Notes: generated by a model from the sequence alone, not told the origin. Positions 2,010 to 58,931 are shown, counted from the first letter of the stretch. The stretch is 64,000 bases of DNA from Oscillospiraceae bacterium (GCA_021201135.1 JAJQGT010000009.1:48715-112714), one strand, 5' to 3'. Numbers and translations are program-made.

Positions 2010-3092
2010 TCATGTCTGGAGTGTAAATGATTCTTCATATCTTTTCTTAACAATTCCTTCCACACACTGATATGCCTTAGCAAATACAAGAGCGCCGCCT
2101 GTTGTCCCGATACATACGAGTATGTAAGAAACCAATGTCTCACCCGCGATAGTTGCCAAGCCTAATTTATCAATTACTCTGAAAACCATCATATGTGCAA
2201 GATATATTTCAAAGCTTACGCCACTTACAAACTTGCTGACTGGATTACTCAAAAGTTTTGTATCCGGACACAAGGCTCCTATTATCATCATTCCATACCC
2301 AATTATGTTCTTTATCAGTCCAACTATCGTCTCTGTTGTTCCTTCACCCGAAAACGGGATCATATATACAACGGCGAATCCGACAAGTACAAACACAACG
2401 CCAAGCCAAGTCTTTCTCTCGAAGAATCTAACTATCGAATCTTTATACAAATACATCAAACCGCCAAGGACGAAATAGCACATCCATCTGAACATTAAAC
2501 TGCTACCGGAATCGAAATACTCACAACACAAAACGTAAATGACGCAGGTGATTGCAAAGCTGAACCATGCCCTTTTCTTGTTCCAAATCAGATATACAAA
2601 GAACGGGAAAAGAATATAGAATCCAAATATAATGCCGAGAGTCCATCCAACTCCTATCACACTCATGCCAGATGTTGTATAAAACCCAAACATCAAAGTT
2701 AGATTTGCAAATGCTTCTGCAATACTTCCGGCTGATATACCGCCGTCAAATACTAAACTTACAACCAAATCAATCAGAACAAGCAATGCAAAAAACGGAA
2801 GTATTCTCTCGTATCTTCTGCTGTAAAACTTATTCAAACTAATCTCATTATTCTTGATTCTTTCGTAATAGCCACAGCACATCGAAAAGCCGCTCAAGAT
2901 AAAGAACAGCTGAACAAATCCTCCCATCTGTGCTATCAGGGTATTAACTACATAGTCTGCAGTACCCCCCCACACAGCAACATCAAAACCAATATTTGCT
3001 CTGACGTGCATACAGATGACACCGATTGCTGCTATTGTGCGAAGAGCATCTAAGTTGTTGTATCGCTGTAGTCTTGTAATTTGAGTATCCAT
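2010..3092 (-). CDS. Membrane O-acyltransferase (acyltransferase-3 family, OafA/WecH-like)
   Basis: 360-aa polytopic membrane ORF with N-terminal NNLDALRTIAAIGVICMH motif. Located in the EPS locus. Carries an in-frame G7 tract at 2965-2971. Confidence 0.85.
   Translation of the reverse strand: MDTQITRLQRYNNLDALRTIAAIGVICMHVRANIGFDVAVWGGTADYVVNTLIAQMGGFVQLFFILSGFSMCCGYYERIKNNEISLNKFYSRRYERILPFFALLVLIDLVVSLVFDGGISAGSIAEAFANLTLMFGFYTTSGMSVIGVGWTLGIIFGFYILFPFFVYLIWNKKRAWFSFAITCVIYVLCCEYFDSGSSLMFRWMCYFVLGGLMYLYKDSIVRFFERKTWLGVVFVLVGFAVVYMIPFSGEGTTETIVGLIKNIIGYGMMIIGALCPDTKLLSNPVSKFVSGVSFEIYLAHMMVFRVIDKLGLATIAGETLVSYILVCIGTTGGALVFAKAYQCVEGIVKKRYEESFTLQT
2965..2971 (-). repeat. G7 homopolymer (C7 on plus strand) inside the acyltransferase CDS, in frame
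   Basis: Plus strand reads gcagtaCCCCCCCacac. Sense strand reads GTG TGG GGG GGT ACT GCA (VWGGTA). Confidence 0.95.
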
Positions 3093-3235
3093 TTTCTAAC
3101 TCCCACAAACTTTGAATTCTTTTCCCGTATAATTCCTTCAATGCTTCAAAAATACTGTATTCCCGCTTACATCCAAGTCCTGACCCGTGATTCCGGTAAT
3201 CAATGCTTTTTTCATAAAGTTTGCTCCTCAGATTT

Positions 3236-4552
3236 TTATTTTTCTATTTCGAATTTCTTCTTATCATCCACGCTGATGCTCTCGCCAATCTGAACCTCGA
3301 TGATGTCAAGATTCGTCTCGGCTTCGACCATATGCTTGCAACCGGTGGGAATCGTGATTACGTCGCCGGTCCGGAGCGTCTGCTCCTTGCCGTCAAGTGT
3401 GGCTTTGCCATTGCCGGAAATTACCGTCCAGACTTCTTCACGATAATCGTGGCTGTGGTAGCTCATGTGCTCGCCTGCCCGGATGGAGACCTTGACGGTC
3501 ATCGAACCGTGCTGAACATCCATGACCGTGTATGTTCCCCACGACTTCTCGGCAAACATTACGTCCGTACTGATTTTCTCGACAAACGGCTTCATATAGC
3601 CGCTTCGTTCTTTATCCGAAACAAGGATTCCGTCACCGCTTGCGGCGATTACCATGTCCTTGCAACCCATTGCAAGAATCGGAACGTTCAGCTCGTTGAT
3701 AATCTGCGTGTTCTCGCAGGATTCGTCCATGACAGCCTTGCCCTTGATGTTGTCGGACATAACCTCCGCCATCATGTTCCATGTGCCGACATCCTTCCAC
3801 GAGCCGGAATAGCGGACAACCTGGATGGACGGTTCTTTTTCAACAACGGCATAGTCAAAGCTAATTTTTGTCAGCGTTTCGTACTTGTTATATAAATCAC
3901 GGTAGTCGGTGAAGTCCACCATGCTGTGGGCTTTGTCAATCAAATATCCGAGCTTGAAGGCAAACACACCGGCGTTCCATAGGGCGTTTTGCTTCAAATA
4001 AACCTCCGCAGTCGCTCTGTCCGGCTTCTCTTTGAACTCTTTTACGTTGCTGACTTCTCCGTCTAACTCCGGAATGATATATCCATACTTCTCGCTCGGA
4101 TAAGTCGGCTCGATGCCCATAAGTGTGAGATTCGCAGTCCCCTGCTTTACCGTCTCTTCAAGCTTTTCGACGCACTCATAGTAGCTGTTTTCAACATACG
4201 GATCGACCGGACAAACCGCAACAGGCTCGTCCAGCCCGACGCCGAGTTCATCGTGAAGATACGCCGCCGCCAAGAGAATCGCCGGGAATGTATCCCTGCG
4301 GCACGGCTCCACGCAAATGGAAATCTTGTCCCCGAGCTGATTATGTATTGCGCTCGCCTGCGACTTGCTCGTGGCAATCGTTACCTTTGCCGCCGGGTCA
4401 ACCTCTGTTATCTGGCGGTAGACCCTCTGCACCATTGACTCATAGTCGCCGTTATTGTCTTTGAACAGCCTTATAAACTGCTTGCTCCGAACGTCATTCG
4501 ATAGCGGCCATAGGCGCTTGCCGGAACCGCCGGATAGGAGTATGATGGTCAT
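3236..4552 (-). CDS. manC: Mannose-1-phosphate guanylyltransferase with C-terminal cupin domain
   Basis: 438 aa. N-terminal LSGGSGKRLWPLSN nucleotidyltransferase motif and C-terminal cupin (EHMSYHSHDYREEVW). Confidence 0.88.
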   Translation of the reverse strand: MTIILLSGGSGKRLWPLSNDVRSKQFIRLFKDNNGDYESMVQRVYRQITEVDPAAKVTIATSKSQASAIHNQLGDKISICVEPCRRDTFPAILLAAAYLHDELGVGLDEPVAVCPVDPYVENSYYECVEKLEETVKQGTANLTLMGIEPTYPSEKYGYIIPELDGEVSNVKEFKEKPDRATAEVYLKQNALWNAGVFAFKLGYLIDKAHSMVDFTDYRDLYNKYETLTKISFDYAVVEKEPSIQVVRYSGSWKDVGTWNMMAEVMSDNIKGKAVMDESCENTQIINELNVPILAMGCKDMVIAASGDGILVSDKERSGYMKPFVEKISTDVMFAEKSWGTYTVMDVQHGSMTVKVSIRAGEHMSYHSHDYREEVWTVISGNGKATLDGKEQTLRTGDVITIPTGCKHMVEAETNLDIIEVQIGESISVDDKKKFEIEK

Positions 4553-4898
4553 GTACTGTCCCCTGTGTTACTTATTTGTTACTTCGAATGCCAAAGCAAA
4601 TTGAAATTCTTCAAATGCCAAGAATCCCAATTGTTTAGTGCAAGGTGAACTTCTCCACATTTCAAAAGAGCAAAAATAGTTCTGATTAAATATGCCAACG
4701 TAGACGTCTTATCGCCAAACTGCGAAAAATTGTGTTGATTTGCATAATTCCACAGTTTCTCCGATACGTCTAACTTCATGCTACATACCAAAGTTTTGGT
4801 CCAATCCCCGTGTGCTTAGTAAATATCCAAGCATGAAAACGCAGTTTCTACTCCATCACAATGATACATAAGTTTACATGTCGGCAATACTTCTACAT

Positions 4899-14685: not shown

Positions 14686-15623
14686 TCATGAAGCGTTCCA
14701 ACGTTTATTTTTTATTTTTGTTCTTAACTTTAAACACATGCTTGCGACATGCGGAAGGAAGGTTGAAAAATACAAGGGCACAACTTTAAAATTATGACCT
14801 TTCAAAATTGCTTCTTTAAAGTACTTCTTCGCATCTTCAAAAGCTTCATTCCTCAGACATAATTTTCCCAGATATTCATTGTATACAGCGAATATTTTTG
14901 CAGTACCCCCCCACATGACGAGGCTGACTCAAGCAACTTATTCATTACCATTTTTGTACCTTCCTCTCTTTTGCGCCAATTTCCGCTGATTCTTTGATGA
15001 CTGTCATCACAATGTAGCGTAACAAGCGGTTTTCTTATATATTTAACACTTCCGAATTTGCAGACGCGAAGCCACATATCAAAATCCTGTCTGGCAGGAA
15101 GGGCAGTATCAAACAAACCGGCTTTATACAATGCTTCTTTCTTTACAGTTACAGCACTGGTCTGATTAACAATATCCTTAAAGATTAAATCATTATATAT
15201 GTAGCCGTCCTCATGGGTATGGCTCGTAATCCTGCTAGTTCCGTCAGAAAACAGGGCGATAAGATCGCAGGATGTCAATGAAAAAGAACCAGACATATAT
15301 GCCTTCGACACTTCTTCAAGATATGTTTCATCCCACTCGTCGTCGCTATCCAAAAAAGCTATGACCTCGCCGTTGGCATTCTCTATCCCCGTATTCCTTG
15401 CCGCATTTGCCCCAAGGTTGTCGGAATGAAAAATAAACCTCACCCGCTCGTCCGCCATCTCGGAATACTCTTTGATTTCGTCCTTCCATTCAGAGCCCGC
15501 TTCATTATCATCGACAACAATAATTTCAAAGTCATTGTATGTCTGGTTCAGAACACTTTTGATAGAGCGTTCAAGCATCTGGTGATGAGTTTTATAAGTT
15601 GGTATAATAACAGAAATAAGCAT
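14686..15623 (-). pseudogene. Glycosyltransferase family 2 split by a frameshift at a G7 tract (catalytic part 14853-15623, C-terminal helical part 14686-14916)
   Basis: MLISVIIPTYK, VDDNEAGS and LDSDDEWD motifs. The reading frame ends 50 nt after the G7 tract. The -1/+2 frame continues as WGGTAKIFAVYNEYLGKLCLRNEAFEDAKKYFKEAILKG..., a typical GT2 C-terminal extension. Confidence 0.65.
14906..14912 (-). repeat. G7 homopolymer at the GT2 frameshift point
   Basis: Plus strand reads gcagtaCCCCCCCacat. G8 (or G5) would fuse the two GT2 ORF pieces. Confidence 0.95.
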
Positions 15624-15727
15624 AATTCCATCCTTCATTCATAGCTTCAAACACAGTTTTTAGTACAAAAAGTCATCTTTTCATCCGTAAAATTCAAGCA
15701 CTTACTGATGTATCTGCAACGGTTGCA

Positions 15728-18660: not shown

Positions 18661-18689
18661 ATTATAACAAAGAATACGCCTATTGTCAA
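18661..18689 (-). promoter_or_regulatory. Sigma-A-type promoter of the EPS operon
   Basis: Minus strand reads TTGACA, 17 nt, TATAAT, about 110-145 nt upstream of the first EPS gene. Confidence 0.6.
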
Positions 18690-18787: not shown

Positions 18788-18794
18788 CCCCCCC
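18788..18794 (-). repeat. G7 homopolymer about 100 nt upstream of the EPS promoter -35
   Basis: Plus strand reads gtgtaCCCCCCCacaaaa, in an intergenic region. Confidence 0.95.
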
Positions 18795-18898
18795 ACAAAA
18801 TATCAGGATATTCAACAGTTACTCAAATTCAATCACAATTTTGTGGAATATGTTTTTATACAAGTACGGAAATTTTTGCCGCAGATTTTTTTCAGTCA

Positions 18899-19009
18899 TC
18901 AATCTTCGTTTTCTTTTCGGAGACTTATACCGCTCGTTCCCATAAAGAAGAGAAGCACCAAGACCCCGAAGGTTCCTCCGACCATCATTCCCAACAAGAA
19001 GCACAGCAT
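18899..19009 (-). CDS. 36-aa hydrophobic peptide (MLCFLLGMMVGGTFGVLVLLFFMGTSGISLRKENED)
   Basis: GGGAGGG lies 7 nt upstream of the ATG. The peptide has a single predicted TM segment and a charged tail, and has its own promoter at 19028-19056. It is below the ORF-track size cut-off. Confidence 0.45.
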   Translation of the reverse strand: MLCFLLGMMVGGTFGVLVLLFFMGTSGISLRKENED

Positions 19010-19014
19010 AGCTC

Positions 19015-31730: not shown

Positions 31731-31737
31731 CCCCCCC
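31731..31737 (-). repeat. G7 homopolymer in the pilus-operon leader
   Basis: Plus strand reads cactaCCCCCCCacgc. It lies about 35-40 nt downstream of the predicted transcription start. Confidence 0.95.
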
Positions 31738-43394: not shown

Positions 43395-43420
43395 TTCGGT
43401 GCCACTCCTTTCATGACTGT

Positions 43421-44617: not shown

Positions 44618-44630
44618 GTGTTTCAACTCC

Positions 44631-45383
44631 TTACAGCCATAAAAATTGCATCCATGTGGGAACCTGAATCTCCCAACTTGCTTCGTTGTGCACGCCGCCT
44701 TGCTGACAATAAAGATACGTTTGCACCTGTTTTTCCATAAGCTTCGCTTCGAGATAACAGATGCTATCAGCAATGTTCTGCACCCGCTCAGGTGTGTCTT
44801 CTGCAGTACCCCAACTAAAAAACACCTTGGTATCCGGAGACAGGCTGTCTTCCCTGATCTCTTTATCAAAGGATTCCATTGCGGGTAACAGAGAGGGCGA
44901 GATCACCGCCGCTTTTGAAAAGAAGCGGTTGTAACGCAGTACTGAATAAAGCGCAGTCATGCCACCATTGCTGTAGCCGGCGATTGCGGTTGATTCCCGG
45001 AACGGGTATGTCCGATAGGTTCTGTCTATGTAGGGCTTCAGGTCTTCAACAATCCAACGAAGGGTATCGTCACCTCGTCCCCACACCTCACCATAGATTC
45101 TGCTGTATATATGATACGGACAATATTCATGCAATCTTTGCACATCGTCATTTGAACACTCAATCCCTACTACAATAAGCTTTTTACCCCAATGATCCAG
45201 AAACTGCTTCAGCCCAAGTGATTTGCCATATGTGGCATCAAAATCGAAAAACAGATTGTGACCATCAAACATATAGAGCGTCGGATACCTTTCGCCACAG
45301 AAATCGTAGTCATCGGGGAGATACAGATGAATCCGTCTGACCTGCGATGCGGCAGGAAAGTAGTAATCAAATTTGTAAACCAT
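44631..45383 (-). CDS. Alpha/beta-hydrolase 'putative esterase' family (esterase D / S-formylglutathione-hydrolase-like fold)
   Basis: About 250 aa with YPTLYMFDGHNLF and the GYSNGG nucleophile elbow. Confidence 0.7.
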   Translation of the reverse strand: MVYKFDYYFPAASQVRRIHLYLPDDYDFCGERYPTLYMFDGHNLFFDFDATYGKSLGLKQFLDHWGKKLIVVGIECSNDDVQRLHEYCPYHIYSRIYGEVWGRGDDTLRWIVEDLKPYIDRTYRTYPFRESTAIAGYSNGGMTALYSVLRYNRFFSKAAVISPSLLPAMESFDKEIREDSLSPDTKVFFSWGTAEDTPERVQNIADSICYLEAKLMEKQVQTYLYCQQGGVHNEASWEIQVPTWMQFLWL

Positions 45384-45430
45384 ACAATGCCTCACTTGAA
45401 CTCTGAATTTTTAATATGCTAATGCGGACT

Positions 45431-45459
45431 ATTATATCATCAATAACCTACTATGTCAA
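45431..45459 (-). promoter_or_regulatory. Promoter of the esterase/ATP-grasp/gshA/amidotransferase operon
   Basis: Minus strand reads TTGACA, 17 nt, TATAAT. Confidence 0.6.
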
Positions 45460-45463
45460 TAGG
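45447..45463. promoter_or_regulatory. Operator-like site CCTAC-N7-ATAGG overlapping the -35 of the thiol operon
   Basis: Reads CCTACTATGTCAATAGG. It is one of three related sites in the window. Confidence 0.4.
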
Positions 45464-45520
45464 TTTAATAGGCTTTACAAAAATTTTTCACTCCTGCACA
45501 GTATCTGCGAGCTCTGCCGT

Positions 45521-45549
45521 TTGACATTGGCGTCATTGTAGGCTATAAT
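45521..45549 (+). promoter_or_regulatory. Promoter of the cystathionine lyase/synthase operon
   Basis: TTGACA, 17 nt, TATAAT. Confidence 0.6.
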
Positions 45550-45560
45550 AAAGTGGTTCG

Positions 45561-45577
45561 CCTACTTAAATGGTAGG
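45561..45577. promoter_or_regulatory. Operator-like site CCTAC-N7-GTAGG just downstream of the -10
   Basis: Reads CCTACTTAAATGGTAGG, with perfect 5-bp inverted arms. Confidence 0.4.
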
Positions 45578-45605
45578 CAATGAATATACGAAAGGTGCAT
45601 CATAG

Positions 45606-46766
45606 ATGAAACGTGGTATCGAAACAAAGTGTATTTACGGAGACGGTGCAAAATTTGATGGGGACAAGACCGGCTCAATCAGCTTTCCTATCTACCAGAC
45701 CGCCACATTCGCCCACCCTGAAGTGGGGCAGAGTACCGGCTTTGATTACAGCCGTATGCAAAATCCAACCCGACAGCAGTTGGAGCAGGTAGTCGCCTCT
45801 CTGGAAAACGGAGTGGATGCTCTGGCGTTTTCAAGTGGCATGGCGGCGATGACCGCATTGATGGAACTGTTTCACCCTGGAGACCACATTATTACAGACG
45901 CTGATTTATATAGCGAAAGCATCCGTCTGTTCCGCTCAATAAGCCAGAAAAACGGCATTACATTCAGCTACATTGACTGCACAAAAGAGGATGCAGAATC
46001 ATATATTCAGGAGAACACCAAGGCAATTCTGATTGAAACTCCCACTAATCCCATGATGAACGTAATAGACATCCGCAGTATGGCGGAGATAGCAAAGCGA
46101 CACGGATTGCTTTTCATCGTGGGCAACACTTTCCTGTCGCCCTATTTCCAGAAGCCTCTGACCCTTGGAGCGGACATCGTGCTTCACAGCGGGACAAAAT
46201 TCCTCGGTGGACACAACGATACGTTGGCAGGCTTTCTTGTGACAGGAAGCAAGGAGCTATCCGAAAAATTTCGTTATATTTTCAAGACAGTCGGCTCCGG
46301 ACTGGCTCCATTTGATAGTTGGCTGATCTTGCGAGGCATCAAAACCCTTCCCATCCGCATGGAACGGTCACAGGAAAACGCTCAAGCCATTGTAGCGTTT
46401 CTGCAGGGAGAACGCAGGGTGCGTAGAGTCTGTTATCCCGGCATTCCCGGCACTCGATCCTATGAAATATGTAAGAGACAGGCAAGCGGCTTTGGCAGTA
46501 TGATTACCTTTGAAGTGGAGTCCAAGGAGATGGCACTCCATATTCTCAAGAATACGAAGCTGATCCCGTTCGCAGAAAGCTTGGGCGGCGTAGAGACATT
46601 ATTGACCTATCCCATCACTCAGACGCACGCCGATGTACCAGCGGATGTGTTACAGAAAAATGGCATCACAGATCGGATTCTGCGCCTGTCGGTCGGCATT
46701 GAAACCAAAGATGACCTGATCCAGGATTTGAAGCAGGCGATGGATTCCTTTGAAGCATCGCACTGA
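45606..46766 (+). CDS. Cys/Met-metabolism PLP enzyme (cystathionine gamma-synthase / beta- or gamma-lyase family)
   Basis: 386 aa with YSRMQNPTRQQLE, SSGMAA and HSGTKFLGGH (PLP-Lys). Confidence 0.85.
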   Translation: MKRGIETKCIYGDGAKFDGDKTGSISFPIYQTATFAHPEVGQSTGFDYSRMQNPTRQQLEQVVASLENGVDALAFSSGMAAMTALMELFHPGDHIITDADLYSESIRLFRSISQKNGITFSYIDCTKEDAESYIQENTKAILIETPTNPMMNVIDIRSMAEIAKRHGLLFIVGNTFLSPYFQKPLTLGADIVLHSGTKFLGGHNDTLAGFLVTGSKELSEKFRYIFKTVGSGLAPFDSWLILRGIKTLPIRMERSQENAQAIVAFLQGERRVRRVCYPGIPGTRSYEICKRQASGFGSMITFEVESKEMALHILKNTKLIPFAESLGGVETLLTYPITQTHADVPADVLQKNGITDRILRLSVGIETKDDLIQDLKQAMDSFEASH

Positions 46767-46782
46767 AAGGAGAAGAAAAGCC

Positions 46783-47973
46783 ATGGGAGAACGAAATCTG
46801 GACTTTGACAGAATTATTGACCGGCGCAATACAGACTGCCTGAAATACGACTTTGCGAAGCGCAGAGGCAAGCCCGAAGATGTCCTGCCACTGTGGGTGG
46901 CTGACATGGATTTTCCTACATCCGGTTATGTGTTGGATGCTCTTCAGGAGAGAGTAGCTCACGGGATTTTCGGATACACCGAAATCGGAGACAGCTATTT
47001 TGAAGCGGTTGCAGGATGGATGGAGCGCAAGCACGGTTGGCAGGTGAAGCAGGACTGGTTAGTGAAAACGCCGGGTGTAGTTTTTGGGATTGCTATGGCA
47101 GTGAAAGCGTTCACAAAAAAAGGAGACAGCATCCTCATCCAACAGCCGGTGTATTACCCATTCAAAGAAGTCATTGAGGACAACGACAGGCAGGTTGTCA
47201 GTAGCGATCTGGTATTGGGGTCAGATAATCGCTATCATATTGATTTTGCAGATTTTGAACGGAAAATTATTGAGAATCAGGTTAAGCTGTTTATTCTATG
47301 TAGCCCACATAACCCTGTGGGACGTGTCTGGAAAAGAGAAGAACTGCTAAAAATCGGTGATCTCTGTCTGAAATACGGAGTGTTAGTAGTCAGTGATGAG
47401 ATTCATCAGGATTTTGTCTATGGGGAAAACAAGCACCTGGTGTTCGCTAATCTGGCACCCGAATTTGAGAAGATTTCCATCACCTGCACCTCACCTGCGA
47501 AAACCTTTAACCTCGCCGGCTTGCAGGTGTCCAACCTGTTTATTCCCGACTCCAAGTCGCGTGAGGTGTTTTGCAAGCAAATTGCCGCTTCCGATTACAG
47601 CCAGCTGAACACCTTGGGACTGACTGCCGGAGAGGCGGCATATCGGTTCGGAGAGGAATGGCACAATGGCGTTATCGACTATCTGGAGCAAAATATCATC
47701 TATCTGAAATCGTATCTTAATCAGGAGCTGCCGGAAATACGCATGATAGAGCCGGAGGGAACATATCTTGTGTGGCTTGATTTTCGTGGGCTGGGACTGA
47801 AAGTCCCGGAACTGGAGCATATGATTATCCACAAGGCAAAGCTCTGGTTGGACAGCGGTGCTATCTTTGGAGCGGCGGGAGAAGGATTTCAGCGAATTAA
47901 CATCGCCTGCCCACGAGCTACGTTGAAGCAAGCACTCGAACAGCTGAAACAAGCTGTTAAAGAAATAGGTTAG
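46783..47973 (+). CDS. MalY/PatB-type aminotransferase-fold cystathionine beta-lyase
   Basis: GAAAGGAG RBS followed by the ATG at 46783. Contains FDRIIDRRNTDCLKYD, LWVADMDF and SPAKTFNLAG. Confidence 0.85.
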   Translation: MGERNLDFDRIIDRRNTDCLKYDFAKRRGKPEDVLPLWVADMDFPTSGYVLDALQERVAHGIFGYTEIGDSYFEAVAGWMERKHGWQVKQDWLVKTPGVVFGIAMAVKAFTKKGDSILIQQPVYYPFKEVIEDNDRQVVSSDLVLGSDNRYHIDFADFERKIIENQVKLFILCSPHNPVGRVWKREELLKIGDLCLKYGVLVVSDEIHQDFVYGENKHLVFANLAPEFEKISITCTSPAKTFNLAGLQVSNLFIPDSKSREVFCKQIAASDYSQLNTLGLTAGEAAYRFGEEWHNGVIDYLEQNIIYLKSYLNQELPEIRMIEPEGTYLVWLDFRGLGLKVPELEHMIIHKAKLWLDSGAIFGAAGEGFQRINIACPRATLKQALEQLKQAVKEIG

Positions 47974-47990
47974 CAGGAGGGCAATAAATA

Positions 47991-48155
47991 GTGTTGAATC
48001 AGTTTTCAAGGACAGAGCTTCTGCTTGGAAAAGACGGAATGGAGCGTTTATCGGAGTCCCGTGTAGCAGTATTCGGCATCGGAGGCGTCGGTGGTTATGC
48101 TACAGAAGCACTTGCCAGAAGTGGGGTCGGTCACCTCGTACTATTGGTGAAATGA
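47991..48155 (+). pseudogene. tcdA: N-terminal 54-codon fragment of tRNA threonylcarbamoyladenosine dehydratase (TcdA/ThiF family)
   Basis: GCAGGAGGG RBS followed by a GTG. The peptide MLNQFSRTELLLGKDGMERLSESRVAVFGIGGVGGYATEALARSGVGHLVLLVK stops where full-length proteins continue (LIDxD...). Confidence 0.6.
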
Positions 48156-48172
48156 AAGTTGAGGCATCAATC

Positions 48173-48664
48173 ATGAGCAAAATAAGAACAAAATTTTTCA
48201 CAGGAGTCATCGCAGTAGCTATGACGTTTGTTATGGTCGGTTGCTCTTCCGAAGCAGAGTCTGTGGAAACACAGGAAAGTACATCCGACATAGCGGAGAC
48301 AGGAATCGAGATTCACATAGAAGATATAAGCACCAACGCCAGTTATTACGATACGACAGTTGACGGAATTAATGTTGAGATTTTCGCAGTTCTCGCTTCT
48401 GACGGCACAGTTCGACTCGCAATGAATACCTGTCAGGTGTGCAACGGTTCGCCATACGCTTACTTTGTGCAGGAAGGTGACTACTTCGTCTGTCAGAATT
48501 GCGGAAGTAAATTCTCAATAAACAATATAGGTGTGGTAAGCGGAAGTTGCAATCCCGTCCCGATAACCTCTGATGATTATTCCGAAGAGGAAAGTGTAAT
48601 TACAATTTCATCAGAATTTCTGAGCGATAACGCTTATCGCTTTACAAACTGGAAGAACTTCTGA
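48173..48664 (+). CDS. Lipoprotein with Cys-rich DUF2318-like metal-binding domain
   Basis: Signal peptide with lipobox (FVMVGC). Contains CQVCNGSPYAYF...FVCQNCGSKF...SGSCNP. Confidence 0.7.
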   Translation: MSKIRTKFFTGVIAVAMTFVMVGCSSEAESVETQESTSDIAETGIEIHIEDISTNASYYDTTVDGINVEIFAVLASDGTVRLAMNTCQVCNGSPYAYFVQEGDYFVCQNCGSKFSINNIGVVSGSCNPVPITSDDYSEEESVITISSEFLSDNAYRFTNWKNF

Positions 48665-48676
48665 GGTGCCTGATAT

Positions 48677-49963
48677 ATGAAAAAATCGGTTATTCATGTC
48701 ACTGGAATGACCTGCCGGAATTGTGAATGCAGGGTCGAGGGCGCAGTATCGGCTATCGAGGGAGTATCATCCGCAACCGCCGATTGCGGAAAGGGACAAC
48801 TGACTGTCGAGTACTCGTCTCCGTGCACAGAAGCGAAAATAAAAGCCGCAATAGAGGAAACGGGTTACGGCGTGAGCGAAACAGGTAAGAAGCTTGGCGA
48901 TACGGTAGCAATTCTCGTTATCATACTTGCATTGTATGTAATAGCAAGGCATATGGGCTGGCTCGAAATCTTCCAGAACATACCAATAATCGGTGAAGAG
49001 CAGATGAGCTATTTCGCACTGTTTCTGATAGGGCTTCTCACCTCAGTTCACTGCATCGCTATGTGCGGTGGGCTTAACCTTGCCCAAAGCATCTCCGAGG
49101 GCAATACAAAACCCCTCAAACGAAGCGTTCTGTATAACTTGGGCAGACTCACAAGCTATACGATAATTGGCGGCGTTCTTGGATTTATCGGAGAGAAAGC
49201 CGCAATTACATTGCAGGTTCGGGGAATTATAGGACTCATAGCGGGAGTGTTCATGCTCATAATGGGGATAAGAATGCTCGGCGGATTTCAGTTTCGCATC
49301 CGTCTTTTTCCGAAGCTATCCGCAAAGATTTCTCAGAAGATTCAGCGTATTGGCAGACACAGCTCCTTTGCTGTCGGGCTTGCAAACGGATTCATGCCGT
49401 GCGGGCCGCTCCAGTCCATGCAGATATACGCTATCGCAAGCGGAAGCATGATTGCAGGTGCACTGTCGATGTTTTCTTTCTGCCTCGGAACCATTCCGCT
49501 TGTGTTTGTTTTTGGAATGGCTGCGGGAATGCTTAAGTCACATTGGCGTACCAGAATGCTGCAGGTTGGCTCCGTCCTTCTCATTGTGATGGGAATCTTT
49601 ATGCTTCAAAATAACCTTGTGCTTACGGGCTTCACAACAACCAGCTCTACTACTTCAGGCTCTGATGATGTCATAGTGTCAACCGTTGACGGCGATGTTC
49701 AATATGTCACAACCGCACTTCATTCAAACGGATATGATGACATTCAGGTCACGGCAGGAATCCCTGTGGTGTGGACAATAGAAGTTGACGAGAGCAGTCT
49801 GAACGGCTGTAATAATGAGATTGTACTGTCGGCATTCAATCAGCAAGTAAAGCTTACTACAGGTGAGGTTGTGATAGAGTTTACACCTGTTGAAGAAGGA
49901 ACATATACCTATTCCTGTTGGATGGGAATGCTGAAAAATACGATTACAGTCGTTGAAGAATGA
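48677..49963 (+). CDS. HMA-domain / polytopic membrane (DsbD_2/TauE-like) / C-terminal cupredoxin-like protein; putative metal handling
   Basis: HVTGMTCRNCE (GMTCxxC), about 6 TM segments with SVHCIAMCGG and MPCGPL, and a C-terminal EGTYTYSCWMGM. Confidence 0.7.
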   Translation: MKKSVIHVTGMTCRNCECRVEGAVSAIEGVSSATADCGKGQLTVEYSSPCTEAKIKAAIEETGYGVSETGKKLGDTVAILVIILALYVIARHMGWLEIFQNIPIIGEEQMSYFALFLIGLLTSVHCIAMCGGLNLAQSISEGNTKPLKRSVLYNLGRLTSYTIIGGVLGFIGEKAAITLQVRGIIGLIAGVFMLIMGIRMLGGFQFRIRLFPKLSAKISQKIQRIGRHSSFAVGLANGFMPCGPLQSMQIYAIASGSMIAGALSMFSFCLGTIPLVFVFGMAAGMLKSHWRTRMLQVGSVLLIVMGIFMLQNNLVLTGFTTTSSTTSGSDDVIVSTVDGDVQYVTTALHSNGYDDIQVTAGIPVVWTIEVDESSLNGCNNEIVLSAFNQQVKLTTGEVVIEFTPVEEGTYTYSCWMGMLKNTITVVEE

Positions 49964-50067
49964 GTTAAAGACAAAGAGAGTGTGCACAACGCTTGCTGAG
50001 CTTCAGCCCAGCTGTGTTGTGCACACTTATCCGTTACCTAAGTGATATAGTTATAGGCAGATAACGC

Positions 50068-50937
50068 TCACTTACAAGTCATGAGGCTATTTACGGAAGT
50101 ATATATCCTTCTGCCGACATAGGAGTTATTCATCACATACAGATGGATTCCGTCTACGCCCTGTGTAATCAGGTCTACGATCTGGTCAACAGCATAGGCA
50201 ATACCGGCATCACGCATAGCAATCGGATTGTTTTCATATCGTTCCATAATCTTCAGGAACTTTGTCGGAAGCGTTGCACCGCAGAGAGAAACCATCCTCT
50301 CAATCTGTTTGCGGTTTGTGACAGGCATGATTCCCGCTTCTATCGGGACGTTGATTCCGGCAATCTGACATCTTTCCAAAAACGAATAGAAGCAATTATT
50401 GTCGAAGAAAAGCCGAGAAATGAGACGGTCTGCACCCGCATCAACTTTTTTCTTGAGATTAAGTATGTCCTCAGCCTTGCTTGATGCCTCAATGTGACCT
50501 TCGGGGTAGCAAGCTCCCGAAACGTCAAAGTCGCCGTTTTGCTTGATGAAAGAAATCAGGTCAGACGCATACTCAAAATCGCCTTTCGGAACCTCGCTGC
50601 CATCCGTAGGCATATCGCCACGCAAAGCTAAGATATTCTCAACACCGATTCGTTTCAGTTCATCAAGCTTTTCAAGAATATCAGCCTTTGTCATTCCAAG
50701 ACAGGTCAGGTGTGCGGCACTTTCGATGCCGTTGTTTTTTATTGCGGAAGTGATTTTGAAGGTCTCTGTGTTGTTTTTGCCTCCCGCCGCCCCGTATGTG
50801 ACACTTATGAAGTCGGGGGAGAGATCCCGAAGCTCTGCAAGTGTGTCATATACGGAGTTTACCGATGATGTGGTTTTCGGCGGGAAGACTTCGAAGGAGA
50901 AGACCGTCTTTGTCTTGAATATTTCAGATATTTTCAT
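50068..50937 (-). CDS. metF: Methylenetetrahydrofolate reductase
   Basis: [21 protein letters not shown]..., SVTYGAAGG and LALRGD. Its ATG at 50937 overlaps the metE stop. Confidence 0.9.
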
Positions 50938-53197
50938 TTCTAAGCTCTCTTGCCGCCTGAACGAGGTTTCGAAGGCTTGCCTCTGTTTCGACGGTGCCTC
51001 TTGTTTTAAGTCCACAGTCGGGATTTACCCAAAGCTTGTCTGGCTGAACCTTGCCAAGCATTTTGTGAAGTGCCGATTTGATTTCCTCAACAGAGGGAAC
51101 TCTCGGCGAGTGAATGTCATAAACTCCGGGACCAACCTCAGTCTTGAAACCGGATTCTTTGAGGGAATCCAGGATCTGAAGGTCGGAGCGGGAAGCCTCA
51201 AAGGTGATAACATCGGCATCCATGTCGTCGATTGCCTTGATTATGTCGGTGAATTCGCTGTAGCACATATGAGTGTGAATCTGGGTTTCCGGCTTGACGC
51301 CGCTGTGAACCAGACGGAAAGCGGGAATTGCCCAGTCGAGGTATTCGCTGTACCAGTCACTCTTTCTTAAGGGAAGTTTTTCTCTCAGAGCGGCTTCGTC
51401 AATCTGGATAACTCTGATTCCGCTCGCTTCAAGATCCAGAACCTCATCCCTTATTGCAAGAGCAATCTGATATGTACTCTCTTTGGTGGATATGTCCTCA
51501 CGAGGGAACGACCAGTTGAGAATTGTAACCGGACCTGTGAGCATTCCCTTGAGCGGCTTGTCGGTCAGGCTCTGGGCATATGTTGACCATTCAACCGTAA
51601 TCGGCTTGATTCTTGAAACATCACCCCAGATAATCGGAGGCTTTACGCATCTGGTGCCATACGATTGCACCCAAGCCTTCTCCGTGAACAGGAAGCCCTT
51701 GAGCTGTTCGCCGAAATACTCAACCATGTCGTTTCTTTCGTATTCGCCGTGAACCAGAACGTCAAGCCCGATATTTTCCTGAAGCTCGATACATTCAGCA
51801 ATTTTCTTGCGGTTAAACTCTTTATACTCTTCCTCGGTTATAGTTCCCTTTCTAAATGCAGTACGATTTGCTTTGACATCCTGAGTCTGAGGGAAAGAAC
51901 CGATAGTTGTTGTCGGGAACTTGGGAAGGTTGAATTCTTTCTTTTGGATTTTTTCTCTTTCGGAGAAAGCAGGAAGTCTTTCAAAATCAGCCTCCTTGAT
52001 TTCAGAAACACGTTTTCTTACGCTTTCATCTGTCGCTCCCTCGCGCTTTTCAAATAGAGCTTCGTTTTTCTTGTATGCTTCCGAAATGCTTCTGTCGGTT
52101 TCGGGGAATAATGCCTTGATTTCAGAAAGCTCCGAAAGCTTCTCCTCTGCAAAGGCAAAATGATTCTTGAAGTCCTCAGACAGCTTAGTTTCGTTATCAA
52201 GAGTATACGGAACGTGCAGAAGCGAACATGATGTGCTGATTACGGCGTTAATTCCTGCATCCGATAAAGTATCAAGGACAGCCAAGGTGCGACTGTAATT
52301 GTTTCTCCAGATATTTTTACCGTTGACGAGACCCGCGAAGAGGAGCTTATCATCCGGGAAACCATTCTTATTGACAAGTGCAAGTGTCTCTCTGCCCTCA
52401 ACAAAGTCGAGTCCAATTCCGTCAAAATCAAGCTTTGCGACATCATTGTAGCAATCTCTTATATCGCCGAAATAGGTTTCAAGGAGAACCTTTACAGAGC
52501 CCTTTGCAGAAAGAATTTTGCTATAAAGTCTTTCAAAAAGCTCTATGTCATCTGCGCTCAGATCATGGACAAGATATGGCTCATCAAACTGAACCCACTT
52601 TGCTCCGAGAGATGAGAACTTCCTCAAAATCTCCGAATAAGCCTCAGCTACGCTGTCTGCAAAATCCGCCGTTTTCCTCTCGCCGGTGAATTTCGTGAGC
52701 TTCAAAAGAGTGAACGCGCCAACTATAACCGGCTTTGTCTCTACTCCCTCAGCTTTTGCTTCAAGATATTCGTCAAAAGGCTTTGTTCCGACGAGCCTGA
52801 CTGAAGTATTGTCGTCAGCTTCTGGAACCATATAGTGATAATTGGTGTTGAACCACTTTTTCATAGCAAGTGCCTTGACATCGCCCTTTTCGCCCTGATA
52901 GCCTCTTGCCATTGCGAAATATGTATCCAATTCCGAAAGCCCAAGCTCAGAATATCTTTCGGGAATAATGTTCAGAAGAACCGCCGTGTCGAGCGTAGTA
53001 TCGTAGAATGAGAAATCGTTTGACGGGATATAATCAAGCCCGGACTCTTTCTCTATAGCCCACTGTGACTTTCTGATCCCGGAAGCGACAGAATAAAGCT
53101 CACTTGACCCCATCTCATTACGAAAATACTTTTCTGTCGCAAATTTGAGTTCTCTCTGGCTTCCTACTCTCGGATAGCCTATGATTGATGACTGCAT
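50924..53197 (-). CDS. metE: Cobalamin-independent methionine synthase
   Basis: AAGGAGAGGA RBS followed by the ATG at 53197. [25 protein letters not shown], about 757 aa, with a C-terminal HMCYSEF zinc motif. Confidence 0.92.
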
Positions 53198-53380
53198 GAA
53201 TATATCCTCTCCTTGTACAAAATCATGTGACCGTTCGTCGGCATAATTATAGCATATTTCGCCCGTTGTCTTCCAATACAATCTTTGAATGCTCAGGTAT
53301 AGATTCAATCTATAGCTTTAAATTTGTTTTCTTTCTTTGACGCTTTTGAAACCTCCGGGTTGAGCTTTACTAAATTAAAA

Positions 53381-53397
53381 CCTATCAACATAGTAGG
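53381..53397. promoter_or_regulatory. Operator-like site (minus strand CCTAC-N7-ATAGG) immediately downstream of the metE -10
   Basis: Minus strand reads TATAAT-C-CCTACTATGTTGATAGG. Confidence 0.4.
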
Positions 53398-53398
53398 G

Positions 53399-53427
53399 AT
53401 TATATCATAAGACAGTCTCGCTGTCAA
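53399..53427 (-). promoter_or_regulatory. metE-metF promoter
   Basis: Minus strand reads TTGACA, 17 nt, TATAAT, with an approximately 195-nt leader. Confidence 0.6.
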
Positions 53428-53465
53428 TACGTTTTTTGAATTCTGAAAAAATTTTCGAAAAGGTA

Positions 53466-53494
53466 TTGACAAAAGAAAATATATCGGTTATAAT
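53466..53494 (+). promoter_or_regulatory. metY promoter
   Basis: TTGACA, 17 nt, TATAAT, with an approximately 200-nt leader. Confidence 0.6.
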
Positions 53495-53551
53495 CCCCGT
53501 AATGCATATCGTTTTAGTATGTGTTTTATTTCGATTGGGAGGAAGGATACT

Positions 53552-53626
53552 ATGCCTACAAATTTCACAGTTCTATTAAGACATAACTTCAGATTCGGTC
53601 GAATGTGTGTACACTGTTGCTGTTGA
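53552..53626 (+). CDS. 24-aa leader peptide MPTNFTVLLRHNFRFGRMCVHCCC (Cys-codon-rich upstream ORF of metY)
   Basis: A strong RBS, GGGAGGAAGGA, lies 6 nt upstream of the ATG. Four of the last six codons are Cys and are preceded by Met. The ORF lies inside the metY leader. Confidence 0.5.
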   Translation: MPTNFTVLLRHNFRFGRMCVHCCC

Positions 53627-53698
53627 TACAGATACAATAACAACGCTTCTTTATCAGAAGCACAGAACAACTTTATCTTACCAAGGAGTGTATACACA

Positions 53699-54991
53699 AT
53701 GAAATACAATTACGAAAACAACTTTAAGTTTGAGACCATCCAGCTCCATGCAGGTCAGGAGAATCCCGATCCCGTAACCGATTCAAGGGCTGTCCCCATC
53801 TACCAGACAACCTCTTATGTTTTTCATAACTCAGCTCACGCCGCAGACCGCTTTGGACTCCGTGATTCCGGCAACATCTACGGCAGACTGACCAATTCCA
53901 CACAGGACGTTTTCGAGTCAAGAATCGCCGCTTTAGAGGGTGGAGTTGCGGGACTTGCGCTTGCTTCCGGAGCGGCGGCTGTTACATACACAATTCAGGC
54001 ACTCGCTCAGAAAGGCGACCATATTGTCGCACAGAAGACCATCTACGGCGGTAGCTACAATCTTCTTGCCCATACTCTTAAGTTAAGCGGAATCGAAACA
54101 ACCTTTGTCGACGCTCATAATCTGGAAGAAGTTGAAGCTGCCATTCAAGATAATACAAAGGCAATCTATCTTGAGACCTTGGGCAATCCTAACAGCGATA
54201 TACCCGATGTTGATGCCATTTCTGAAATTGCACACAGACACGGTATTCCTGTTGCAATCGACAACACATTTGCAACTCCCTATCTTTTCAGACCTATTGA
54301 ACATGGAGCGGACATAGTAATCCATTCTGCGACCAAGTTCATTGGCGGACACGGAACAACTTTAGGCGGAGTTATCGTTGATGGTGGAAAGTTCGATTGG
54401 AAGGCAAGCGGTAAGTATGCACCGATAGCTGAACCGAATCCGAGCTACCACGGAATTTCCTTTGCTGACGCAGTGGGTCCTGCGGCATTCGTAACCTACA
54501 TAAGAGCAATACTTCTGAGAGATACGGGAGCTACAATTTCGCCTTTCAATGCTTTTCTTCTGTTACAGGGAACCGAAACTCTTTCCTTAAGAATTGATCG
54601 TCATGTTGAAAACACAAAGAAAGTTTTGGACTTCCTTGTAAATCATCCGAAGGTCGAAAAAGTAAATCATCCGGCACTGCCCGACCATCCTGACCACGCT
54701 CTGTACGAGAAGTATTTCCCGAACGGAGGCGGCTCAATATTCACATTCGAGATTAAGGGCGGTCAGAAAGAAGCTCACGAGTTTATAGACAGCCTCAAAG
54801 TATTCTCTCTTCTTGCTAACGTAGCCGATGTAAAGAGTCTCGTCATCCATCCGGCAACCACGACACATTCTCAGCTTTCGGAAGAGGAGCTTCTGGATCA
54901 GGGAATAAAGCCGAATACAATCCGCCTATCTATCGGTACTGAGCATATCGATGACATCATTGCCGACCTTTCACAGGCATTTGGGGATTGA
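53699..54991 (+). CDS. metY: O-acetylhomoserine sulfhydrylase (aminocarboxypropyltransferase)
   Basis: 430 aa with [19 protein letters not shown] and [11 protein letters not shown]. Confidence 0.92.
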
Positions 54992-55477: not shown

Positions 55478-56833
<1,356 letters not shown>

Positions 56834-56930: not shown

Positions 56931-56951
56931 TTAATGAAATATAATACTAGA

Positions 56952-57515
56952 TTATCCCTGGATTGCAGAACCGCAATACTCACATTCGCCCACTTGTCCT
57001 TCTTGAATGGTGTTCATTCCACCACATCCGCTGCATTTTACAGATACAAGCTTCTGGCCTGTAACGGGAGCTGATGAAGTCTGATTCGTGCTTTGCGGAG
57101 TAGTTCTGGGGCTTGAAGAACCGCCGACAAAGATAGAATTTGAATTCTGATCAATGTAGGCATTGACGAAATATCCTCTCTTAATCATCAGTTCTAAGTT
57201 CTTCTTAACAACATCTTCAGATGTATTCAGGCTTGCTGCTAAATCAGGGATGAAGCCACCTTGTGTGGAGATAGCCGAAACATATACCTTGAAATTGCTG
57301 ATAAGCTTGCTATTTTTGCGGGAAACAACGGTACACCATATACCGATTGCCAAAATAATTATGCAGAAAAGCAAGAAGCCAAATCCGAATTCCTGAAAAT
57401 CAGAAAAACATACAATTATCATAAGCAGAGAAAACGCATCTACACACGCCCCGATTATCAGCGTTACCTTGCTTGCAAGTGAATCTACAACGAGTTTTGT
57501 TTTTGACTTATTCAT
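56952..57515 (-). CDS. Membrane protein (2 TM) with cytoplasmic winged-helix-like segment and C-terminal zinc ribbon
   Basis: 187 aa. Two hydrophobic helices, then DLAASLNTSEDVVKKNLELMIKRGYF, a Ser/Thr-rich linker, and CSGCGG...CEYCG. Confidence 0.6.
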   Translation of the reverse strand: MNKSKTKLVVDSLASKVTLIIGACVDAFSLLMIIVCFSDFQEFGFGFLLFCIIILAIGIWCTVVSRKNSKLISNFKVYVSAISTQGGFIPDLAASLNTSEDVVKKNLELMIKRGYFVNAYIDQNSNSIFVGGSSSPRTTPQSTNQTSSAPVTGQKLVSVKCSGCGGMNTIQEGQVGECEYCGSAIQG

Positions 57516-57565
57516 AATAATAACTCCTATCTAAATTTTTATGTAGGGATACTTTCCCATAGGTA

Positions 57566-58867
57566 CTATTGCAACTTTTCGCCACATTCAGGGCAGAACT
57601 TAGGCGAGCCCTCAATTGGTGCATTGCACTTTGGACAGTTTTTTGAAAGGGTGCCTCCACACTCAGGACAGAACTTCACCTTTGGTGATACGGCTGCTCC
57701 ACAATGAGGACAAGAAATCGGGACATCCTCATTACAATTTGGGCAAGAGGTAGAACCTTCTGGAATATCTGCACCACAACTCTTACAATGGTTTATTCTT
57801 CGCCCACACTCGGGACAGAATTTCGTCGATTTGTTTATCGTTCCGCCACAAGCTGAACACTTAAGAATGTTCTCTTGCTTCTTAGTCGCCTCTGTATCGC
57901 AACCACAAACACCACAGAACCGCTGAGTAGAAGGAATTAGCGAATGACACTTCGGACATTCTTTCTTAGATGCTTCATCAGTGGATGTCTTAATTTCTTG
58001 TGCCATTCCACCGAATCCAGCACCTACAGCATTACCCATCCCAAGCCCCATGCCAATACCCATGCTTGCGCCAGCTACAGATGAAGCAGTTGAGCCTGAA
58101 TTTTTAGCTGCACCCTCGAGAGTGTCAAATGAGCGCTCTTGCTGATAACTATAGCCGATTATGTTCATTTCAGCACGCTTTGCTAAAGCGTTTTTCAGTT
58201 GCTGGACAGCAGAATCGTCTTCAGGCACGCTGATTTCGTTAACATAGAAGGAAACAAGTTCGATACCGTAATCATCCATAGTCGGTTGAATTCTTTCCTT
58301 CATATACTGTGAAAGCTCATCAATATAGGCGTTGATTTCGAGAATGCTTATCTGCTTATGTACTAAATAAGACGAAATTGAATCCTTGACTTTTGTAACA
58401 TAGAGGGATCTAAAATACTTGGTGACAGAGTTTTTATCAAAGCTACTCATTGTTCCGACTAACTTGACGAGGAACTTCCTTGAATCAGAGATTCTTATGC
58501 CAAAAGCACCGTTAGAGCGGACGGGCACGAAAATGCCGTACTTAGGGTCTTGCAACTGAATAGGAGTTGGTGTTCCCCACTTGACATCCAGATTATACGC
58601 CTTGTTGATGTACCAAACTTCTGCTGTAAAAGGCGATCTGCCACCAAACGGCAGCTTTACAACGTTTATGAGAAGGGGAATATTTGCAGTGTCAAGCGTA
58701 TGCCTTCCACTACCGAAAACATCGTAAACCTTGCCACCTTTAACAAGTATCGCTTCCTGTGACTCATTGACAACAAGCTGAGTCCATGTGCCAAGCTCTT
58801 CACTCGGATATTTCCAAGCAAAGACATCGGGACCGCCATTATATTTAATTACTTCTACAATAGCCAT
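57566..58867 (-). CDS. SPFH/band-7 (YdjI-like) domain protein with five C-terminal zinc-ribbon units
   Basis: GGAGGG RBS followed by the ATG at 58867. MAIVEVIKYNGGPDVFAWKYP... is the SPFH-type N-terminal half. Five CxxC-N10-14-CxxC units follow (CPKCHS...CGVCG, CSACGG...CPECG, and so on). Confidence 0.75.
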   Translation of the reverse strand: MAIVEVIKYNGGPDVFAWKYPSEELGTWTQLVVNESQEAILVKGGKVYDVFGSGRHTLDTANIPLLINVVKLPFGGRSPFTAEVWYINKAYNLDVKWGTPTPIQLQDPKYGIFVPVRSNGAFGIRISDSRKFLVKLVGTMSSFDKNSVTKYFRSLYVTKVKDSISSYLVHKQISILEINAYIDELSQYMKERIQPTMDDYGIELVSFYVNEISVPEDDSAVQQLKNALAKRAEMNIIGYSYQQERSFDTLEGAAKNSGSTASSVAGASMGIGMGLGMGNAVGAGFGGMAQEIKTSTDEASKKECPKCHSLIPSTQRFCGVCGCDTEATKKQENILKCSACGGTINKSTKFCPECGRRINHCKSCGADIPEGSTSCPNCNEDVPISCPHCGAAVSPKVKFCPECGGTLSKNCPKCNAPIEGSPKFCPECGEKLQ

Positions 58868-58899
58868 TAATTTTCCCTCCATAAAAAAATCACAACTAC

Positions 58900-58931
58900 A
58901 TTGTACCCCCCCCCGCAAACCCTTTTGTCAA
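58900..58931 (-). promoter_or_regulatory. Promoter whose -35/-10 spacer contains a G9 tract (spacer 20 nt as sequenced)
   Basis: Minus strand reads TTGACA-aaagggtttgc-GGGGGGGGG-TACAAT, about 33 nt upstream of the ATG at 58867. Confidence 0.5.
58906..58914 (-). repeat. G9 homopolymer in the promoter spacer
   Basis: Plus strand reads ttgtaCCCCCCCCCgcaaac. Confidence 0.95.

Follow-up and report, generated by a model that had tools for sequence, protein, structure and literature searches.

The long G runs in a 64,000-nt stretch of an Oscillospiraceae genome (hereafter the window; 45.9% G+C) lie within or upstream of surface-related genes, share a compact flanking motif, and probably constitute a multi-locus set of slipped-strand phase-variation switches, also known as simple-sequence contingency loci. 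The window has only five G/C homopolymers of at least 6 nt, numbered 1 to 5 from left to right (Table 1). All five are C runs on the plus strand and G runs on the minus strand, which carries nearly all genes across the first 45 kb, such that the tract G is on the gene-sense strand. A sixth tract (G8) is found on the same strand about 3.4 kb past the left end of the window, giving at least six candidate switches within approximately 70 kb of this lineage. The first-pass annotation of the window had reported the same five runs, with TA before the C run and mostly AC after it. We recovered their positions, their lengths and this context (gTA-C7-ACa three times, cTA-C7-ACg and gTA-C9-GCa once each), and found no other run of 6 nt or more.

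The annotation had also placed two tracts inside genes that modify exopolysaccharide (EPS) and three in the promoter or leader regions of EPS, pilus and SPFH genes. Tracts 1 and 2 are indeed within EPS-modifying genes and the others are in front of the EPS, pilus and SPFH genes, but about 100 nt separate tract 3 from the -35 element of the EPS promoter downstream of it, which puts the tract outside the leader of that promoter. Of the two explanations that had been proposed, contingency loci and a strand-polar chromosome motif, the first is supported by the placement of the tracts in reading frames and a promoter spacer, by at least three out-of-frame tracts followed by intact open reading frames (ORFs), by length differences between relatives, by the glycan-related functions of the genes, and by truncated homologues.

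A distinct class of G runs with a compact flank

Counted on both strands of the window, G/C runs number 721 at 3 nt, 138 at 4 nt, 11 at 5 nt, none at 6 nt, four at 7 nt and one at 9 nt; the long runs are a distinct class in a bimodal distribution, not the tail of a geometric decay. The corresponding numbers in 134 kb of clade sequence are 20 runs of 5 nt, five of 6 nt, eight of 7 nt, two of 8 nt and one of 9 nt. Over-representation of long repeats against the genome's own run-length decay is a mark of contingency loci, and is seen here in the bimodal lengths, with a shuffle P of about 0.04 for the count alone. The significance of the tracts rests on their context, strand and bimodal lengths, not on the number of G7 words, which is only weakly enriched, at seven against a mean of 2.8 in dinucleotide-preserving shuffles, four of 100 of which reach seven. 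With up to three mismatches allowed, the 16-mer TGTGGGGGGGTACTGC matches the window five times against 0.19 expected, at tracts 1-4 and at a site without a G run (32681); tract 5 is beyond the three-mismatch limit.

The tracts recur in close relatives. Logan contigs of sample SRR15221304 match the window at 100% identity, and the window's proteins match entries of a metagenome-assembled genome (MAG) at NCBI; a sister sample, SRR15221305, differs from the window lineage by 1-2 single-nucleotide polymorphisms per kb. A genome scan for the priming transferase gave 35 loci, among which G runs of at least 7 nt in the same context were present only in the two closest, from Oscillospiraceae MAGs (L008 and L009), while unrelated taxa of high GC content (L038, L040) have long G runs in other contexts. 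Neighbors of a radical-SAM (S-adenosylmethionine) gene led to L052 and L063, two additional MAGs that come from other projects, and the four related MAGs together add ten more tracts. Seven samplings of a sister species (about 21 kb) and ten of a more distant relative (about 13-21 kb) gave no run of at least 6 nt; these 17 loci amount to about 34 kb of non-redundant sequence and mostly lack an EPS cluster. The 26-kb housekeeping stretch of the window (32-58.9 kb) also has no tract.

Flank statistics were drawn from the 134 kb, which comes from four related genomes, by comparing runs of 2-5 nt with the 16 runs of at least 6 nt. TA follows 15 of the 16 long runs and GT precedes 13, compared to 4-7% and 7-10%, respectively, of the shorter runs. 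The one long run without TA after it corresponds to an ordinary G5 at the orthologous site of the window. These numbers are much stronger evidence for a non-random context than the five tracts on which the first-pass annotation had based the same claim. A position matrix of the first 11 independent tracts, with orthologous copies left out, has G at -4 in six, T or C at -3 in ten, G at -2 in ten and T at -1 in nine; on the downstream side, T at +1 and A at +2 are invariant (11 of 11), and +3 is C in six and A in three. Conservation is confined to positions -4 to +4, with no signal beyond about 4 nt on either side, and two G6 tracts that were found later also have TA after the run. The compact motif is GYGT-Gn-TAM, with G on the sense strand.

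Coding constraint was ruled out as the cause of the flank, since the in-frame (ON) translations differ between tracts (V-W-G-G-T, C-G-G-G-T, R-G-G-G-N, S-V-G-G-Y and V-G-G-V-I) and three tracts are non-coding. The motif is found in different coding frames and also at non-coding sites, and thus operates at the level of DNA. An origin of the flanks by copy-paste or gene conversion was also considered and rejected: some non-homologous pairs share 17-22 nt, yet a column permutation gave P = 0.09-0.15. The sharing is no more than position-specific composition predicts, and thus the compact motif suffices. A literature search on the motif string returned unrelated matches only.

These features raise the possibility, which we consider unlikely, that the flank is a functional address, with a sequence-directed or transcription-coupled process creating, maintaining or tuning slippage only at marked G runs. 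Candidates for such a process could be a factor that binds the ends of the run, a context for polymerase or repair slippage, or instability that R-loops promote when G is on the non-template strand. An address would fit the contrast between long and short runs in TA and GT, the restriction of conservation to -4 to +4, the presence of the motif at coding sites in different frames and at non-coding sites, and the sense-strand G in all 11 coding tracts of the clade. It would also fit the persistence of the motif at orthologues of tract 3 despite diverged neighboring flanks, and the other contexts of long G runs in the unrelated taxa L038 and L040. However, no candidate factor was identified, and a single protein is unlikely to read both flanks across a spacer of 6-10 nt. 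Moreover, the sample consists of 13-16 tracts from five closely related genomes, and the motif could have been produced by selection for a mutable context or by chance founder effects in one clade.

Reading frames, a promoter spacer and upstream sites

Returning to the tracts as contingency loci, a gain or loss of one unit changes either the reading frame, according to frame simulations, or promoter geometry, given the location of tract 5 between -35 and -10 elements. In the simulations, tract 1 is in frame at G7 and thus ON, whereas G6 or G8 leads to a product of 47-49 amino acids (aa). Tract 2 at G7 cuts the product of a family-2 glycosyltransferase (GT2) gene to 261 aa, while G8 (or G5) restores 316-317 aa, and homologues of 308-316 aa, 46-50% identical, align with the C-terminus in the G8 frame. 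Judged from these alignments, the consensus state of tract 2 reads as a truncating frameshift with the downstream frame intact. The sixth tract (ctggTGT-G8-TAAtag) is located at positions 16479-16486 of L001, a contig that runs 8 kb past the left end of the window, equivalent to 17626-17633 of L005. It is in frame (ON) at codon 34 of a 328-aa GT8/Nucleotid_trans-like gene, and has the same length in the sister sample.

The clade has 11 coding tracts, all with G on the sense strand and most of them in genes for acyltransferases and glycosyltransferases that act on polysaccharides. At least three of them break the frame while the downstream ORF is intact: tract 2, an acyltransferase gene of L009 (L009b; 48 aa at the observed G7, 338 aa at G8) and a hexapeptide acyltransferase gene of L052 (L052b; 52 aa at the observed G6, 220 aa at G5 or G8). 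Both kinds of allele are therefore represented, with tracts 1 and 6, L008b and L052c ON and the three frameshifted genes OFF but otherwise intact. The genes with tracts encode three Acyl_transf_3 proteins and one each of Hexapep, GT2, GT8/Nucleotid_trans-like and GT-D-like proteins. Those with non-orthologous tracts in the relatives are two further Acyl_transf_3 genes, the hexapeptide acyltransferase gene, the GT-D-like gene and two ORFs without assignment; from its translation, one relative's tract gene looks like an F420H2-dehydrogenase-type EPS protein. An association with surface or host/phage-interaction genes, another property of contingency loci, is thus found in the EPS acyl- and glycosyltransferases, the EPS operon, the LPXTG/pilus gene and the membrane SPFH protein.

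Homologues of the tract-1 acyltransferase provide a view across a wider set of genomes. Those of at least about 45% identity, from MAGs labeled Lachnospiraceae, Ruminococcus, Clostridia and Oscillospiraceae, carry GG or GGG exactly at the tract-1 position, and about 19 of these closer homologues have been called as N-terminally truncated proteins. Two of the truncated proteins begin with "MGGG" exactly at the tract site, as expected if, following a frameshift, the gene caller starts at a GTG that combines the GT flank with the first G of the tract. Distant members of the family have neither the GG loop nor the truncation. This family-level pattern, seen in the proteins, could be an indirect ON/OFF signal. 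A plasmid search found no homologues of the tract-1 acyltransferase.

Tract 5 represents a different arrangement, in that it fills the spacer of the promoter of the gene encoding an SPFH/Band-7 and zinc-ribbon protein. A terminator precedes this promoter, and the ribosome binding site and ATG of the SPFH gene lie 33 nt after it. The window and SRR15221304 have G9 at this tract and SRR15221305 has G10 (99.94% flank identity), while the orthologous promoter in L052 has G6 and a 15-nt spacer. A homopolymer between -35 and -10 elements that varies in length between strains is what is seen at porA/opc-type switches. At G6, the window promoter would have a 17-nt spacer, the optimum. In both L052 (2900-3600) and the window (56950-58935), the G-tract promoter module lies between adenylyltransferase and enolase genes, a conserved syntenic position, and the genes behind it differ: SPFH/zinc-ribbon and 187-aa proteins in the window, and a 93-aa and a 31-aa Ltp-like ORF in L052. 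The SPFH gene had no PADLOC match, and the idea that it is a known defense gene was dismissed. We also rejected the idea that all tracts form part of -10 elements, as a T at position 6 of the hexamer after the tract is limited to tract 5 and its L052 orthologue.

Tracts 3 and 4 are non-coding at any run length. Tract 3 is located 99 nt upstream of the -35 element of the EPS operon promoter. The window has G7 here and both L009 and L063 have G8, in flanks that have partly diverged but keep GT and TA. The tract ends, together with a hairpin, a segment of about 130-150 nt (window 18790-18900, minus strand) that is present in the window, L009 and L063 and absent in L052 and L045, where the small ORF is directly followed by promoter-proximal sequence (L052 11150-11520; L045 11150-11540). 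Judging from this distribution, tract 3 appears to have arrived with a lineage-specific insertion. The small ORF encodes a hydrophobic 36-aa protein (MLCFLLGMMVGG...; window 18898-19008, minus strand), has its own near-consensus promoter (19056-19028), and sits between the radical-SAM gene and the EPS promoter; it is kept in L009, L052, L045 and L063, and mostly is not called by gene callers. In a metagenome scan, the tract-3 orthologue pattern TTTTGTGGGGG-N0-10-TASACGGCTCC gave only one non-homologous chance match.

Tract 4 is in a leader-like, strongly folding region (z = -3.2); in the predicted fold, its G's are base-paired in a long leader hairpin, with a terminator-like hairpin further downstream. 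Alignment gave no support for homology between the modules upstream of tracts 3 and 4, and searches of the non-coding tract regions for Rfam families found none at the gathering or E<=1 thresholds.

In the model we propose, slipped-strand mispairing during replication would add or remove one base in a run of 6-10 G's, with three kinds of outcome. In EPS-decorating genes, whose runs are close to the 5' end or within the part that encodes the C-terminus, the frameshift would leave the enzyme ON, OFF or truncated; currently, tract 1 and the sixth tract would be ON, and tract 2 OFF or truncated. At tract 5, G9 or G10 would set a spacer of 20-21 nt and a promoter that is weak or off, and G6 or G7 a spacer of 17-18 nt and a promoter that is on. 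Tracts 3 and 4 most likely would tune transcription by altering either how upstream elements are spaced or how the leader RNA folds. For tract 4, a length-dependent leader fold is one possibility and altered spacing of upstream elements another. If switching is fast and reversible, as we infer, a clonal population would be mixed with respect to surface glycan decoration and the expression of the pilus and the membrane protein, with possible phenotypic effects.

Table 1. Coordinates of the G tracts in the window and of associated features
Feature	Position	Strand	Remarks
Acyl_transf_3 (O-acyltransferase) gene with tract 1	2010-3092	-	360 aa at G7
Tract 1, G7 (tgTGT-G7-TACtgca)	2965-2971	-	codons 41-43 of the Acyl_transf_3 gene
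GT2 gene split by tract 2	14686-15638	-	frame A 14853-15638; conserved C-terminal 56 codons in next frame to TGA 14686-14688
Tract 2, G7 (caTGT-G7-TACtgca)	14906-14912	-	in the GT2 gene
Bac_transf priming glycosyltransferase gene	17693-18517	-	first gene of EPS operon; downstream of tract 3
EPS operon promoter	18661-18689	-	sigma-70-type consensus TTGACA-17-TATAAT with TG; before priming sugar transferase
Tract 3, G7 (tttTGT-G7-TACacggctccgccgt)	18788-18794	-	non-coding; 5-bp hairpin follows
LPXTG-anchored surface protein gene	27334-31548	-	1404 aa; sortase/pilus cluster; downstream of tract 4
Terminator-like hairpin	31614-31637	-	10-bp stem and T run; between tract 4 and LPXTG gene
Tract 4, G7 (agCGT-G7-TAGtgcc)	31731-31737	-	non-coding; between two promoter-like sites
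SPFH/Band-7 and zinc-ribbon protein gene	57566-58867	-	433 aa; downstream of tract-5 promoter
SPFH gene promoter	58900-58931	-	-35 TTGACA 58931-58926, 20-nt spacer with tract, -10 TACAAT 58905-58900 (read directly)
Tract 5, G9 (ttTGC-G9-TACaat)	58906-58914	-	fills promoter spacer

Length differences among relatives and alternative explanations

Comparison of tract lengths across relatives, suggested in the first-pass annotation as a check on switching, gave a divided answer. Tract 5 differs between near-identical genomes (G9/G10) and between species (G9/G6), and tract 3 differs among three genomes (G7/G8/G8). Between the two sister samples, tracts 1, 2, 3 and 6 have the same length and only the longest, tract 5, has changed, which weighs against phase variation. 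Several other observations also speak against a set of phase-variable switches. The only other indel in the 33.7 kb compared is an A5/A4 difference, and the contrast between one indel in four long G tracts and one in 155 A/T runs of at least 5 nt is weak (Fisher P = 0.05). Strains of the sister species show indels in ordinary A/T and short G/C runs too, and G6-G8 is at the low end of the tract lengths known for quick switching. No single gene was found in both the ON and OFF states within one lineage, the spacer of the tract-5 promoter is non-optimal (15, 20 or 21 nt) in all three genomes such that no ON configuration was seen, and some of the truncated acyltransferase homologues could be partial genes at contig ends.

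Some of these observations could be accounted for if the tracts are ordinary, slightly mutation-prone runs, kept in part for the function of their Gly-Gly codons, and the frameshifted genes are pseudogenes in a decaying or variable EPS locus, without reversible, selected switching. The identity of four of the five tracts compared between the sister samples, the conserved GG or GGG in the tract-1 acyltransferases, the fact that homopolymer indels are a general class of indel between close strains, and a G7 count only weakly above that in dinucleotide shuffles all are compatible with this explanation. It is not readily reconciled with bimodal lengths that include none or very few at 6 nt, nor with the same motif at three non-coding sites, one of them a promoter spacer. 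Furthermore, Gly-Gly can be encoded without a homopolymer, the OFF genes have conserved, uninterrupted frames downstream of the tract, and truncation at the same site recurs in many independent MAGs. We therefore think that simple decay has little chance of being the correct explanation.

Homopolymer lengths are error-prone, and a study of Bifidobacterium breve cautions that the true length of a G-tract may not be the annotated one (PMC9187656). An artefact of sequencing or assembly has a close to negligible probability here, however. Independent assemblies of the two samples give the same tracts (1, 2, 3 and 6), and the proteins of the NCBI MAG match. In addition, the conserved protein encoded across tract 1 is in frame at the observed length, MAGs produced by different projects share the motif, and the tracts are in the interior of high-coverage contigs.

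The second explanation in the first-pass annotation was a strand-polar architecture motif, either Chi-like (AddAB) or similar to the FtsK-orienting polar sequences (KOPS) and SpoIIIE recognition sequences (SRS) of FtsK/SpoIIIE, which are G-rich and co-oriented with replication. The tracts share with these elements a G-rich sequence and a single-strand orientation within the window; the tract strand is G-rich by GC skew across 1-20 kb, and several 5' flanks read AGCGTGG, which we take to resemble the Chi sequences of Firmicutes. Yet Chi, KOPS and SRS are fixed-length words, dense and genome-wide, and tolerated in ORFs, whereas the tracts vary in length from 6 to 10 nt, are sparse, and disrupt frames, with at least three of the 11 coding copies breaking an ORF. 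Their density, about one per 8-13 kb in the sequence covered, is far too low and also uneven, as the copies are limited to accessory, horizontally variable glycan genes and to promoters and are absent from the 26-kb housekeeping stretch and the outgroup loci. The orientation is confounded with that of the genes, since all copies follow genes and G-rich strand alike and there is no origin/terminus switch in the window. We also tried the skew of Chi-like k-mers, and set it aside because the skews mirror coding-strand composition and 134 kb is too little sequence. The variable length, the interrupted ORFs and the absence from housekeeping and outgroup stretches lead us to abandon this explanation as very improbable.

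Other kinds of variation were noted in the window and its relatives. A full-length gene for an MmeI-family type IIG restriction-methyltransferase adjoins the pilus cluster (window 37463-40336, minus strand). In the sister species, its orthologue (L045-L051, approximately 1387-4150) is an intact 920-aa gene in three samples; in two others, single-nucleotide indels in a G-run (position 1437) and a C-run (position 3068) split it into 573 and 347 aa, which reads as strain-level on/off variation of a restriction-modification gene at short runs. Several large serine recombinase genes (Resolvase/Recombinase/Zn_ribbon_recom) are present beside a radical-SAM gene in L053-L062 (JGI samples 33000178xx, approximately 11.8-20 kb), with an order, orientation and gene lengths that vary by sample (for example, 522 aa or 356 and 147 aa); this suggests recombinase-mediated rearrangement or nested mobile elements. 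Within the pilus cluster, the gene for a 1795-aa Cna_B/SpaA-domain surface protein contains a 264-nt tandem repeat (window 33093-33828; 2.8 copies, 80% matches) that is a possible additional source of length variation.

Logan contigs of SRR15221304 and SRR15221305 break at the same three sites of the window, inside the second GT2 gene (14239), inside the priming transferase gene (17936-17941) and at the sortase gene (25570). None of the three breaks is at a G tract, and they may be due to repeats or strain mixtures. The window also includes a sulfur/methionine block (41348-54991) encoding a glutamate-cysteine ligase-like protein, two Cys_Met_Meta_PP enzymes, MetE, MTHFR and an aminotransferase. 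A search for Rfam families across the whole window found no SAM riboswitch or T-box at the gathering score, only tRNA-His and tRNA-Leu.

Relation to known contingency systems

A close parallel for the intragenic tracts is in Campylobacter jejuni, which has poly-G contingency loci in its capsule, lipooligosaccharide and flagellar-glycosylation clusters; such loci are mentioned in PMC9187656 and PMC11868660. As in C. jejuni, there are several G runs per genome, mostly in genes that decorate surface glycans, where frameshifts would turn a gene ON or OFF, and OFF alleles occur in sequenced genomes. In contrast to C. jejuni, the host is an uncultured member of the Oscillospiraceae (Clostridia), and the tracts are shorter (6-10 nt) with a GYGT-Gn-TAM flank and sense-strand G. 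We know of no flank consensus of this kind for Campylobacter. The promoter-spacer arrangement has counterparts in the homopolymer switches of Neisseria meningitidis porA, opc and fetA and the C-tracts of Bordetella fim. Similar to these switches, tract 5 is located between a consensus -35 element and a -10 element, and is G9 or G10 in near-identical strains and G6 across species, with spacers of 15 to 21 nt. This likeness is at the level of sequence, and unlike those switches, none of the genomes with tract 5 has the optimal 17-18 nt, and the cargo differs (SPFH here, small ORFs in L052).

A G-tract inside the first pilus gene (G11-12) switches sortase-dependent pilus clusters in Bifidobacterium breve UCC2003 (PMC9187656). 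Both organisms are Gram-positive commensals with a G-tract at a sortase/LPXTG pilus locus, and replication slippage, proposed here, would be the switch in both. Tract 4 differs in being G7, non-coding and within a structured upstream region, where any effect would be on transcription or the leader.

To our knowledge, nearly all examples of multi-locus repeat-driven phase variation are from pathogens. Why multi-locus genomes appear restricted to pathogens is posed as an open question in a 2025 review, in which Clostridia appear only via the invertible elements of Clostridioides difficile (PMC11868660). In our literature search, no paper connected homopolymer phase variation with Oscillospiraceae, and there was no report of such short tracts or of a conserved flank and strand. 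Thus, the set differs from known contingency systems in its host (uncultured gut-type Clostridia), its short tracts, and its conserved flank and strand.

If the tracts are phase-variation switches, the surface glycans of gut Clostridia would vary at the strain level in a way that consensus MAGs partly hide, and this variation would bear on escape from phages and from immunity. "Frameshifted" EPS genes in MAGs then should not be counted as pseudogenes. Through the tract-bearing acyltransferase family, the pattern reaches MAGs of Lachnospiraceae and Ruminococcus as well, and GYGT-G6+-TA is a simple signature that can be searched for and that raises the question of whether context sets the rate of slippage. 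Should the flank prove to be a functional address, the Oscillospiraceae, and perhaps many gut Clostridia, would have a programmed, motif-defined phasome and not a collection of accidental repeats.

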